This document shows positions 29,599 to 62,613 of a stretch of 64,000 bases of DNA, in pieces. The notes below the pieces were generated by a model, which was not told the origin of the DNA, ran no database searches, and worked only from the letters and a program-made list of their open reading frames with translations. Numbering within the stretch: the stretch's first letter is position 1; every line of letters begins with the position of its first letter. The translations under genes were made by a program, and so were the position numbers. The stretch is from assembly GCF_054482525.1 (NCBI RefSeq), contig NZ_CM137006.1; one strand, given 5' to 3'.

Positions 29599-29625
29599 AA
29601 AAAATAAGCCCGTGTAAGGGAGATT
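29599..29625. other. attR: P2 att core (prophage right junction, attR) next to yegQ
   Basis: AAAAAATAAGCCCGTGTAAGGGAGATT matches the 27-bp P2 attachment core as I recall it; lies between ogr and the first host gene. Confidence 0.75.
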
Positions 29626-29769
29626 ACACAGGCTAAGGAGGTGGTTCCTGGTACAGCTAGCATTTTATGGGTTATGTTTTTCAGCGAAACGGATGATAAC
29701 CTTAATAAATGCAGCTGTATGTGATCGGTTTCTAAGAATTTTCCATCCGGGAAAAATAATCGAAATTAA

Positions 29770-42999: not shown

Positions 43000-43150
43000 C
43001 TGAAACGGGAAAGCCCCTCCCGAGGAAGGGGCCATAAATAAGGAAAGGGTCATGATGAAGCTACTCATCATCGTGGTGCTCTTAGTCATTAGCTACCCAG
43101 CATACTAAGACTACCAGGGCGGGGGAAACCCCGCTCTACCCTCACTCCTG
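43000..43150 (-). ncRNA. sibB: SibB antisense sRNA (type I antitoxin), approximate boundaries
   Basis: By established ibs/sib organisation the antisense RNA fully overlaps ibs; reverse-strand hairpin plus U-rich tract near 43009-43031 is consistent with its terminator. Confidence 0.5.
43052..43108 (+). CDS. ibsB: Type I toxin IbsB (18-aa hydrophobic peptide)
   Basis: ATGATGAAG... encodes MMKLLIIVVLLVISYPAY; preceded by AAGGAGG-containing leader. Confidence 0.85.
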   Translation: MMKLLIIVVLLVISYPAY

Positions 43151-43329
43151 AAAGTATGCCTTCACGATAAGATTGTCAATCTGCAGGCTTTGCAGTCTGC
43201 GATCCTGCCAGCAAATATTCTTTGCGAGACGTTACGCAATAATCACACTGGAAACTATTTTATCCGCAAGTCAGCGATAGACTGCATACAGGGCGAAAGG
43301 AGGTAAGCCGACGATTTCAGCGGGACGCT

Positions 43330-43480
43330 GAAACGGGAAACCCTCTCCCGGAGAAGAGGGCTTTTAATAAGGAAAGGGTTATGATGAAGCACGTCATCAT
43401 ACTGGTGATACTCTTAGTGATTAGCTTCCAGGCTTACTAAGAACACCAGGGGGAGGGGGAAACCTCTCCCTAACCCTCAC
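43330..43480 (-). ncRNA. sibA: SibA antisense sRNA (type I antitoxin), approximate boundaries
   Basis: Antisense to ibsA by analogy; hairpin at ~43338-43360. Confidence 0.5.
43381..43440 (+). CDS. ibsA: Type I toxin IbsA (19-aa hydrophobic peptide)
   Basis: Encodes MMKHVIILVILLVISFQAY. Confidence 0.85.
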   Translation: MMKHVIILVILLVISFQAY

Positions 43481-43660
43481 TCCTGAAATTATGTCACTCC
43501 GCCCTTAGTGTCAATCGACGGCTCTCCGTTCTTGCGAGGCGAATAGCAAAATTTTCTGCGCCGCCGGGCCTAATTCTGAAAGTTTCTTCGTTTGCTCTTA
43601 TTTCATTGTTGCAGTCGGTATGATACCGGACCTCGATAATTCTCTAAGAAAGGATTTCTT

Positions 43661-56525: not shown

Positions 56526-58109
56526 TCACACCTCGTATTCCATCTCGCCATCCTTATGCAGCGGAATAATCTGCACCTTCTGCACGCGATGGCTTTCCAC
56601 CTGCAACGTTTTAAGCAAATAATCCCCCACCTGAACTTCTTCGCCAGGTTTTGGAATACGCTGCAAATATTCCATCAGCAGCCCGGCAATGGTGTGATAT
56701 TCACGTTTCTCGTCCAGCGGCAGCGGCACATATTGCACCAGATCTTCCAGTGGCATATGACCATTCGCCGTCCAGGAACCGTCCGCATTCTTCTGAATAT
56801 CATGGCGGGCGTCGATCTCTTCCACTTCGTTCGGTAAGTTACCGGCAATGGTTTCTGTGACGTCACTTAATGTCACAATCCCTTCCACTGAACCAAACTC
56901 ATCCACCACAAAAGCAAAGTGCGTGCGGGCATTACGGAACTGCTCCAGGGCTGGTAACAACGGCAAGGTTTCCGGGAACACCAGCGGCTGGCGAATCAAC
57001 ACCCGCAGGTTGAGCGGTTCGCCGCGCAGTGACTGTTGTAGCAGGTCGATAACGTGAACAACACCGAGCAAATCTTCCGCGTCGTCACCGTCGGTAACCA
57101 CCAGCCGCGTATGCTGATTTCGCTCCAGCAACTGGCGGATTTCCTCTTCCGGCGCGTTGAGATCGATATGCTCAATATCGTGGCGCGACGTCATAATGCT
57201 GCTGACGGTACGCTGGTTAAGATTAAGGACCCGCTCAATCATCCGCCGCTCCTGCGGATTAAAGATCTGCTGGTTACCATGATCCACCAGCATGGACGCG
57301 GTTTCGGCATCCAGTTCCGCATCTTCTTTTTGCCCGCTAAGCAGGCGCATTACCGCTTCGGTAGTCCGCTGGCGCAGTGTCTGGTTAGCGGAAAGAAAAC
57401 GTCGTCGGTTAAAGATAGCCAACTGATTGAGCGCCTCGATCATCACCGAGAAGCCAATGGCGGCGTACAGGTAGCCTTTCGGAATGACGAAGCCGAAACC
57501 TTCTGCCACCAGGCTAAAGCCAATCATCAACAGGAAGCTTAAGCAGAGAATAACGATGGTCGGGTGACTGTTAACAAATTGCGTTAACGGCTTGCTGGCC
57601 ATCAGCATCAGGCTGATAGCGATAACCACGGCGGCCATCATGACCAGTAAATGGTCGACCATCCCGACGGCGGTAATCACTGAGTCGAGTGAGAAGATGG
57701 CGTCCAGTACCACAATTTGTGTCACCACCCCCCAGAACTTCGCACCTTTGCGTTGTGTGGGGTTATTGCTGTCTTTCCCCTCCAGCCGTTCGTTCAGCTC
57801 CATCGTGGCTTTGAACAGCAGGAAGAAACCACCAAACAGCATGATTAAGTCGCGGGCGCTAAAGGTAAACGAGCGGAAGCTGAACAGCGGTTGAGTCAGG
57901 GTGACCAGCCAGGAGATTGACGCCAGCAGTAACAGGCGCATTAACATCGCCAGCAGCAGCCCGGTAACCCGTGCGCGGTCGCGCTGCTTCGGTGGTAGTT
58001 TTTCGGCGAGGATGGCAATAAAGACCAGGTTATCAATGCCGAGGACCAGTTCGATCACAATCAGCGTGATTAACCCGGCCCAGATAGACGGATCGGCAAT
58101 CCATTCCAT
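56526..58109 (-). CDS. yegH: TerC-family membrane protein with CBS/CorC domains, YegH (527 aa)
   Basis: Start at [13 protein letters not shown] (ATG 58109 revcomp); TerC N-terminal TM domain, C-terminal CBS pair and CorC/transporter-associated domain. Confidence 0.93.
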
Positions 58110-58270
58110 AGTAAGTACAAAACCTATTCGTTGTATGACAAATGTCACAATTCGATCATGGATAAATCGGGGCAAAAATGCAATGTTGCAGCACTATTTA
58201 TCTCATATTATTTGAGGTTTATAACCTCACATTATCCCTGAATTAAAAGTGGTAATAATAAAACATTATT

Positions 58271-58284
58271 TAAGAAATATCGCA
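58271..58284 (+). promoter_or_regulatory. Possible RcsAB box in the cps (wza) promoter region
   Basis: TAAGAAATATCGCA resembles the RcsAB box consensus (TaAGaatatTCctA) as I recall it; weak, by eye. Confidence 0.3.
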
Positions 58285-58577
58285 TGTGGAGACACTATAT
58301 TAAATATTGTCAACCTAAAGAAACTCCTAAAAACCATATTGAATGACACTTAATATAATTCTTAAAAATAGCCAATTGCCGAATTGTTACCTTGCCTGCT
58401 ATTCCGTTAGCTGTAACACTTCCTCCTGCATTATTGGAGAGCCAATATTCAATTACCATAATGTCACCTTATATTCGGAAGTTAATTTCCGCAATAACCC
58501 TTTCTCATCAACGACTGTATGTTGAGAGGGTTTTAAAAATTAAGCTAAATCAGTGTATTGGTAGCTAAAAAGCCAGG

Positions 58578-58589
58578 GGCGGTAGCGTG
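58578..58589 (+). promoter_or_regulatory. ops: ops element (GGCGGTAGCGTG) within JUMPstart in the wza 5' leader; RfaH recruitment site
   Basis: Exact match to ops consensus GGCGGTAGnnTG ~180 bp upstream of wza, same strand. Confidence 0.8.
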
Positions 58590-58767
58590 TCTGGATGCCT
58601 GAAAGACCAGTCTGAATTATTCTGTCAATAGCCTGCGGATGAAATCAATTTTTTTAGGACTGATGCCAGTTAAATTTTTATTCAATTAACTGCAAGGTAA
58701 ATGTGCATGGCGACATTGCTATTAACAGTGCACAGGATAATTACTCTGCCAAAGTGATAAATAAACA

Positions 58768-59907
58768 ATGATGAAATCCAAAATGAAATTGATGCCATTA
58801 TTGGTGTCAGTAACCTTGATAAGCGGTTGCACAGTACTTCCGGGCAGCAATATGTCGACGATGGGGAAAGACGTCATCAAACAGCAGGACGCTGATTTCG
58901 ATCTCGACAAAATGGTGAATGTTTATCCGTTGACCCCGCGCCTGATTGATCAATTACGACCACGCCCGAATGTAGCGCGCCCCAATATGACGCTGGAAAG
59001 TGAGATCGCGAATTATCAGTATCGCGTCGGGCCGGGGGACGTTCTTAATGTCACCGTCTGGGATCACCCGGAACTCACCACGCCAGCCGGTCAGTACCGC
59101 AGCTCCAGCGACACCGGCAACTGGGTACAGCCTGACGGCACTATGTTTTACCCGTATATCGGCAAGGTTCACGTGGTGGGGAAAACGCTCGCTGAAATCC
59201 GCAGTGATATTACCGGGCGCTTAGCGACGTACATCGCTGACCCGCAGGTGGACGTTAATATCGCCGCCTTCCGCTCGCAAAAAGCCTATATCTCCGGTCA
59301 GGTGAATAAATCCGGTCAACAGGCCATCACCAACGTGCCACTGACCATTCTTGATGCCATCAACGCCGCAGGTGGCCTGACCGACACCGCTGACTGGCGC
59401 AACGTAGTGCTAACACACAATGGTCGTGAAGAGCGCATTTCTTTGCAGGCGCTGATGCAAAACGGCGACCTCAATCAGAACCGACTGCTTTACCCCGGCG
59501 ATATTCTCTACGTGCCGCGTAATGATGATCTGAAAGTGTTTGTGATGGGTGAAGTGAAGAAACAGAGCACCCTGAAAATGGACTTTAGCGGCATGACCCT
59601 GACTGAAGCCCTTGGTAATGCTGAAGGCATCGACATGACCACCTCCAACGCCAGCGGCATCTTTGTCATTCGTCCGCTGAAAGGCGAGGGTGGGCGTAAC
59701 GGCAAGATTGCCAATATCTACCAGCTGGATATGTCCGATGCCACGTCGCTGGTGATGGCGACAGAATTCCGCCTGCAACCTTATGACGTGGTGTATGTCA
59801 CCACCGCACCGGTTTCCCGCTGGAACCGTCTGATCAATCAGTTGCTGCCAACTATTAGCGGTGTCCGTTACATGACGGATACAGCCAGCGACATTCATAA
59901 CTGGTAA
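58768..59907 (+). CDS. wza: Outer-membrane polysaccharide export lipoprotein Wza (379 aa)
   Basis: Lipoprotein signal [21 protein letters not shown]; 379 aa. Confidence 0.96.
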
Positions 59908-62521: not shown

Positions 62522-62545
62522 CGACGCCTGCATTCGCACCGCCCC

Positions 62546-62583
62546 GTAGGCCGGATAAGGCGCTCACGCCGCATCCGGCAAGC
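62546..62583. repeat. REP element between wzc and wcaA
   Basis: gtaggccggataaggcgctcacgccgcatccggcaagc palindrome. Confidence 0.7.
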
Positions 62584-62613
62584 AAACCAGCTCATAAGTC
62601 GGGAGAACAACCT

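Follow-up and report, generated by a model that had tools for sequence, protein, structure and literature searches.

The yegH-wza intergenic region

The window, by which we mean the whole stretch of 64,000 nucleotides that was analysed, carries at 58110-58767 a spacer of 658 bp between two divergent genes, yegH on the minus strand and wza on the plus strand. The genes wzb, wzc, wcaA and wcaB follow wza in that order.

58109, minus strand: ATG of yegH (RefSeq annotation)
58768-59907, plus strand: wza, which opens the colanic-acid operon (ATG at 58768), an ORF of 379 amino acids annotated as Wza in RefSeq

The region controls the E. coli colanic-acid (cps/wca) operon, and as such it has already been described. 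In an alignment of 701 nt that span the spacer, it agrees with E. coli PCN033 at 100% of positions and with K-12 MG1655 at 98.3%. The 12 SNPs that separate it from K-12 all fall outside the conserved elements described below, none of them in the ops/JUMPstart element, the RcsAB-box candidate or the promoter blocks. The same 701-nt region was matched at 95% identity or more in 4831 of 5426 complete E. coli genomes, an intact copy of the spacer being absent from about 11% of them. E. coli KE51 (locus L084) is such a case: an IS1 replaces the DNA from about 58181 to a wcaL remnant, and the promoter and nearly the whole colanic-acid cluster are gone. The spacer has a GC content of 28-33%, as against about 55% in the adjoining genes.

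An earlier note on this DNA had placed the regulatory motifs in an untranslated region of about 590 nt upstream of wza. That length was mistaken, as it is the distance from a mechanically called ORF end at 58175 and not from the yegH start at 58109. The real leader is moreover shorter than 590 nt. Besides the leader, the control region of the divergent yegH and the wza promoter, which is untranscribed, lie in the spacer.

To compare the region between genera we collected 80 wza loci, one genome per species, 79 of which have a usable upstream region. All mean identities given below are identities to the window sequence in an alignment of 27 species (26 besides this one).

Several other features lie outside the wza control elements. 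On the yegH side, a conserved palindrome, TATGACAAATGTCACA, is found at 58134-58149 (within 58131-58152), 25-40 nt upstream of the yegH ATG, with a mean identity of 0.70 across genera. It has a single mismatch to the CRP consensus TGTGA-N6-TCACA and may represent a protein site or, alternatively, a hairpin of the yegH 5' UTR. Further into the operon, the gap between wzc and wcaA (62522-62613) holds a REP-like, GC-rich stem-loop, GCCGGATAAGGCGCTCACGCCGCATCCGGC, at the position where group 1 and Klebsiella capsule loci reportedly have a stem-loop attenuator, between wzc and wbaP; it is plausible that this stem-loop is an obstacle which RfaH-modified polymerase reads through. Elsewhere in the window, Rfam models identified two Sib antitoxin RNAs and the CyaR sRNA, at 43037-43514 and 29602-29687, both on the minus strand, which are ordinary E. 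coli features.

The ops and JUMPstart element

58551-58589, plus strand: JUMPstart, 39 nt, a short hairpin followed by ops (Rfam RF01707)
58578-58589, plus strand (non-template strand of wza): ops, the RfaH loading and pause site, an exact 12-mer GGCGGTAGCGTG

The earlier note had reported an exact ops element upstream of wza, and it is indeed there, at the 3' end of a full-length JUMPstart, beginning 190 nt before the wza ATG. The 12-mer agrees with the ops consensus GGCGGTAGnnTG (core GGCGGTAG) and has no second match in the window, not even with one mismatch; by our own arithmetic, about 0.008 exact matches would be expected by chance in 128 kb of two-strand sequence. The Rfam model RF01707 aligned over its positions 1-38 of 38 with a score of 57.3 bits (gathering cut-off 35, E = 3e-12). 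RfaH requires ops on the non-template strand (PMC9765446), and here ops lies on the wza strand, between the long operon and candidate promoters whose predicted starts are 150-215 nt upstream.

The element is strongly conserved. A JUMPstart (RF01707) precedes wza in 19 of the 20 other genera tested with Rfam, and about 75 of the 79 loci have ops at a constant spacing to the wza ATG, held at 186-199 nt across loci. Of the 4838 E. coli records that match the 45-mer around ops, 4139 do so with an identity of 99% or more. The pairs of the JUMPstart hairpin are retained across species, with 0 compensatory changes according to RNAalifold.

Published data from E. coli CFT073 bear directly on the orthologous site. 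The same 12-mer at -190 of wza is among the eight ops sites with an RfaH ChIP signal, which at wza was seen in delta-hns delta-stpA cells and spans wza-wcaM (PMC9765446). In the wild type grown in rich medium the wza locus is silent and the RfaH signal absent; H-NS sits on the wild-type wza promoter, and a sigma-70 peak appears there only without H-NS (PMC9765446). In the present strain too, ops is predicted to recruit RfaH and to improve distal expression.

In Pseudescherichia vulneris and its relatives (loci L041, L038 and L037) the JUMPstart/ops element is deleted from the wza leader, leaving a natural ops-less variant in which neither the RcsAB box nor any of the promoter blocks has been lost and the conserved leader blocks beyond the ops position are still present. 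Since this lineage lost JUMPstart and kept the rest, the RfaH input is dispensable in at least one lineage.

A candidate RcsAB box

58271-58284, plus strand: candidate RcsAB box (RcsA-RcsB~P operator), TAAGAAATATCGCA, from consensus match and conservation

The published RcsAB consensus is TaAGaatatTCctA (PMC4325325; PMC3950696). The sequence TAAGAAATATCGCA occurs once in the window, is the sole match within the yegH-wza spacer, and agrees with this consensus at 9 of 14 positions, including every capitalised one (T1, A3, G4, T10, C11 and A14). The consensus match alone is no evidence, however, because motifs of this class are not rare: in the relaxed RcsB form, TNRGANNNNTCNNA, 5 were observed in the window against 10 expected, and in the form reduced to the invariant positions, TNAGNNNNNTCNNA, 19 against 20 expected.

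The resemblance to an RcsAB box that the earlier note had pointed out is nevertheless borne out, as it is backed by uniqueness within the spacer, identity with K-12, invariance in E. coli and a fixed register across genera. The pattern TA[AG]GA[AT]AT[AT]TCGCA is found in about 55 of the 79 wza loci, 293-329 nt upstream of ops, in Escherichia, Citrobacter, Salmonella, Enterobacter, Lelliottia, Kosakonia, Phytobacter, Silvania, Huaxiibacter and Pseudescherichia. In 47 of the 79 loci, from at least 10 genera, its distance to the next promoter block is fixed at 53-55 nt. In the 27-species alignment the box forms a sharp island of conservation, with a mean identity of 0.78 vs 0.35 in both flanks. 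Its surroundings are polymorphic within E. coli, where of 4820 records only 1855 have the 44-mer around the box with an identity of 99% or more; in the most divergent E. coli variants fetched, SNPs lie immediately beside the 14-mer, which itself is untouched.

The homodimer box of RcsB reads TN(G/A)GAN4TC(T/C)NA, with T or C at position 12 (PMC7913699). TAAGAAATATCGCA departs from it at this one position, which is G in E. coli and in nearly all orthologues. To judge from the motif, such a G fits a site for the RcsAB heterodimer rather than for the homodimer.

In K-12, the wza box is reportedly bound by RcsA-RcsB~P and required for induction, a result attributed to Wehland and Bernhard (2000). 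A full-text literature search for the 14-mer returned 0 matches; from its consensus match and its conservation it is in all likelihood the very site that was footprinted and mutated in K-12. On the K-12 chromosome (NC_000913.3) the 14-mer corresponds to 2137727-2137740 of the complementary strand. The wza promoter has been described as having -10 and -35 sites and an RcsAB box (PMC2478693), and RcsA-RcsB activates wza (PMC11014345).

The box lies 67-137 nt upstream of the two candidate -10 hexamers described below, which would place its centre near -86 or near -150, depending on the predicted start. Lying upstream of any plausible start, it belongs to promoter DNA and not to the leader. Of the two motifs that the earlier note had assigned to the wza leader, only ops is therefore in it.

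Conserved promoter blocks and the transcription start

58307-58333, plus strand: conserved block TTGTCAAC..AAAGAAACTCCTAAAAA, putatively part of the promoter, mean identity 0.80; it includes TAAAGAAACTCCTA
58316-58329, plus strand: RcsB-like 14-mer TAAAGAAACTCCTA, whose right half TCCTA (58325-58329) matches the RcsB half of the consensus
58349-58367, plus strand: conserved block CTTAATATAATTCTTAAAA, mean identity 0.87, with -10 candidates TAATAT (58351-58356) and TATAAT (58354-58359)
58390-58423, plus strand: conserved block CCTTGCCTG..TTAGCTGTAACACTTC, mean identity 0.82, candidate promoter (b) or an early-leader element

Downstream of the box, conservation is concentrated in these blocks, so that the layout reads RcsAB box, 54 nt, TTGTCAAT..TCCTAAAA, 25 nt, TTAATAT.., 41 nt, CTTGCCTG..GCTGCAACAAT. 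The spacings are rigid (53-55, 24-25 and 40-41 nt in 47 loci of at least 10 genera), and the sequence between the blocks is unconserved. The block CTTAATATAATTCTTAAAA, which is invariant in E. coli, follows the TCCTAA block by 24-25 nt, and CCTTGCCTG..TTAGCTGTAACACTTC stands 40-41 nt after the TTAATAT block, most genera having GCTGCAACAAT at this place. The distance from the last promoter block to ops is variable, at 172-210 nt.

Two core promoters may be proposed from these blocks. Candidate (a) would use a -10 element at 58351-58359, lacking a -35 element, with a start at 58363-58366 and the box at about -86. Candidate (b) would consist of TTGCCT (58392-58397), 17 nt, TG and AACACT (58415-58420). 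Its start would be near 58427 and would put the box at about -150, a position comparable to that of the rcsA boxes at roughly -170 (PMC11879457). We lean slightly towards (a). Over the two candidates the 5' UTR would be about 340-405 nt long, with ops about 150-215 nt into the transcript. The CFT073 data set gives NA as its entry for the wza start, and the RfaH peak boundary in it is coarse (PMC9765446).

Two further annotations of this stretch were set aside. A consensus scan gave a sole promoter-like match, at 58435-58462, which we reject as its sequence is non-conserved. PGAP annotates a 49-aa 'hypothetical protein', WP_162829205.1, at 58310-58459 on the minus strand; it overlaps the promoter blocks in antisense, spacing differences of 1 nt between genera would shift its frame, and we judge it spurious. 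PCN033 and other strains carry this annotation, and K-12 does not.

The spacer also bears traces of a second, more distal Rcs-like site.

58192-58205, plus strand: relic of a distal Rcs-like box, CACTATTTATCTCA, which aligns with TGAGATTT[AC]TCT[CT]A

The full distal box, TGAGATTT[AC]TCT[CT]A, is found in Enterobacter, Lelliottia, Trabulsiella and others (example loci L029, L046, L068, L011 and L077). It is near-palindromic, and in Enterobacter and Lelliottia about 95 nt separate it from the proximal box downstream. Trabulsiella, Franconibacter and Cedecea have the distal box alone, and E. coli, Citrobacter and Salmonella have kept only its right half. From these patterns, the complement of Rcs boxes seems to have shifted from genus to genus, some having the distal box only, some the distal and the proximal one, and some the proximal one only.

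The wza leader

58615-58674 (58615-58645 and 58650-58674), plus strand: conserved leader blocks beyond ops, AATTATTCTGTCAATAGCCTGCGGATGAA and TTTTTTAGGACTGATGCCAGTTAAA, mean identity 0.77 and 0.90
58730-58767, plus strand: wza translation-initiation region, GCACAGGATAATTACTCTGCCAAAGTGATAAATAAACA, mean identity 0.93

The start region of wza lacks a canonical Shine-Dalgarno sequence and has a small invariant hairpin near the ATG. RNAalifold, applied to the leader, found 0 compensatory pairs and only three structures: the JUMPstart hairpin, a stem overlapping ops and the small invariant stem near the ATG. The single-sequence fold of the leader is no stabler than those of its shuffles (z = -0.14). 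No intrinsic terminator-like sites were found in the wza leader, and from wza to wcaB they are at chance level (6 found vs 6.1 expected).

Just upstream of JUMPstart, a leader hairpin at 58496-58532 has a free energy of -13.4 kcal/mol (z = -3.2). It is not conserved outside Escherichia; its tail reads UUUUAAAAA here and GUGUGAAAAA in K-12, and 4 of the 12 SNPs cluster there. A weak Rfam match to mir-320 at 58489-58545 is spurious and reflects merely this E. coli-specific hairpin.

Beyond ops, a frame of 8 codons (ATG CCA GTT AAA TTT TTA TTC AAT TAA) runs from 58664 to 58690 after AGGA, with constant length and an in-frame TAA in 61 of 77 loci. Its reading as an upstream ORF is weak, since about 20 loci have ATA or ATT in place of the start codon and it is the nucleotides that are conserved, synonymous sites included. 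To judge from this pattern, a recognition sequence is more probable at 58664-58690 than an upstream ORF.

Could the leader carry a further, post-transcriptional input at 58615-58674 and 58730-58767, whether CsrA at GGA motifs, an sRNA target or the 8-codon frame as a uORF? The blocks are 0.77-0.93 identical across the 26 species in the absence of conserved RNA structure, which suggests single-stranded recognition sequences. They contain GGA motifs (in GCGGAUG, UAGGACU and ACAGGAU), and a paper on CsrA in EPEC contains the terms wza, colanic acid and UTR. The GGA motifs vary, however, being replaced by CAGAAT in Salmonella and CACGTGAT in C. youngae, and the uORF form of the idea, favoured by the constant open frame, meets the divergent start codons and the synonymous-site conservation just described. 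We therefore hold such an input to be possible and, on balance, doubtful.

A broader reading would combine this input with the promoter architecture. The control of wza would then reside in a rigid four-block nucleoprotein promoter, with a proximal RcsB half-site at about -41.5, at least one block serving a further factor or an RNA signal, a set of Rcs boxes that changes between genera, and post-transcriptional input beyond ops. We offer this picture tentatively and would not expect it to hold as a whole.

Probable two-stage control of the colanic-acid operon

The arrangement very probably provides a two-stage control, in which Rcs-dependent initiation is followed by RfaH-dependent elongation. 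In the first stage, the AT-rich spacer is silenced by H-NS. Once the Rcs phosphorelay is active and RcsA has been stabilised, RcsA-RcsB~P would bind 58271-58284. The bound proteins would activate or de-silence a weak sigma-70 promoter 80-150 bp downstream, by contact with RNA polymerase or by anti-silencing, with transcription predicted to start near 58364 or 58427. In the second stage, polymerase would transcribe a leader of about 340-405 nt and reach JUMPstart, where the non-template ops DNA would be exposed, polymerase would pause and RfaH would load. Once loaded, RfaH would exclude NusG and Rho and suppress pausing, and the RfaH-modified complex would as a result be expected to transcribe the operon of more than 20 kb to its end. 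RfaH contacts S10 and can recruit ribosomes, and in this way may also help ribosomes to engage wza, a role that the poor Shine-Dalgarno region of this gene would fit. The architecture which the earlier note had expected of a colanic-acid operon, RfaH antitermination together with Rcs activation, is thus supported by the identity with K-12, by the conservation across genera and by the published CFT073 ChIP.

The first stage places the operator at TAAGAAATATCGCA, and it might be argued instead that this sequence is not an operative Rcs operator but is conserved for another protein, the functional site being the proximal element TAAAGAAACTCCTA at 58316-58329 or yet another block. The motif class of TAAGAAATATCGCA is no commoner than chance in the window and its position 12 deviates from the RcsB homodimer box, while TAAAGAAACTCCTA has a perfect TCCTA right half, belongs to a more strongly conserved block (0.80) and would centre near -41.5 of candidate promoter (a), RcsB boxes lying usually just upstream of the -35 (PMC5651002). 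However, position 4 of TAAAGAAACTCCTA is A where the consensus has an invariant G, and Citrobacter and Salmonella do not keep its left half (TCAATAAAATCCTA). TAAGAAATATCGCA has every invariant position, varies across genera exactly as the RcsB/RcsAB consensus permits (A/G at position 3, A/T at the centre), and stays invariant in E. coli while the neighbouring bases vary. We thus consider it very unlikely that TAAGAAATATCGCA is not the operator; the two sites are not mutually exclusive and may well act together.

Likewise very unlikely, in our view, is that ops/JUMPstart at wza is a conserved relic with little effect and that Rcs-dependent initiation alone sets colanic-acid output: the three Pseudescherichia-type loci that keep every other block without it, the absence of RfaH signal from the silent locus of wild-type CFT073 in rich medium, and the terminator-like sites, none in the leader and at chance level from wza to wcaB, could be read in this way, but the element is exact, it is held in place in about 75 of the 79 loci and its surroundings are near-identical in most matching E. 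coli records, RfaH is on ops in CFT073 as soon as the promoter fires, with signal across the whole cluster, and a hairpin terminator is unneeded because RfaH mainly counters Rho and H-NS effects (PMC9765446).

In this strain the control region for colanic acid is intact and like that of K-12, so that Rcs induction of the capsule by envelope stress and full-length expression through RfaH should work as in the model strain. As a discovery this carries little weight, for a known control region has been confirmed in another strain. The block spacing, the possible second RcsB half-site, the changing Rcs boxes and the loss of JUMPstart in Pseudescherichia are minor side observations that are new to us. 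The cross-genus footprint is nonetheless a cheap map of the bases to mutate in a poorly documented core promoter, for a possible second RcsB site and for further factors, and it is relevant to the engineering of colanic-acid overproduction and to H-NS counter-silencing.

Comparison with known systems

The locus is the K-12 cps/wza promoter region of Stout (1996) and of Wehland and Bernhard (2000) in another strain, and is as such already known. Aligned with the K-12 cps promoter, the ops/JUMPstart element and the box candidate are identical base for base, as are the promoter blocks. Of the 12 SNPs, four lie in or just after the leader hairpin at 58496-58532, the tail being UUUU here and GUGUG in K-12.

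The cps locus of Klebsiella pneumoniae likewise combines Rcs activation with RfaH antitermination ahead of a capsule cluster of the Wza/Wzc type (PMC3438125). There, the RcsAB box, TAAGATTATTCTCA, belongs to the galF promoter P1 and JUMPstart to the wzi promoter P2, and the two elements thus act on two transcripts, whereas at wza both serve one. The Klebsiella box differs from the wza box at 5 of 14 positions.

The rcsA boxes of E. coli resemble the wza box in that they act from far upstream, within AT-rich DNA to which H-NS binds; at rcsA the distance to the start is about 170 bp (PMC11879457). rcsA has two boxes, whereas wza of E. coli has one full box, together with the half-site relic at 58192-58205 and the RcsB-like half-site at 58316-58329.

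Among the RfaH-dependent operon leaders (rfaQ, rfb/wzx, hlyCABD, kps and tra; RF01707), the common plan is that of wza: ops on the non-template strand, a hairpin just 5' of it and a long surface-polysaccharide operon behind. The wza 12-mer is that of the rfaQ and wzx sites listed for CFT073, and its distance to the first gene, 190 nt, compares with 40-634 nt in the other operons. Unlike these, the wza ops would be used only when an H-NS-silenced, Rcs-dependent promoter fires, and is accordingly 'cryptic' in rich medium.
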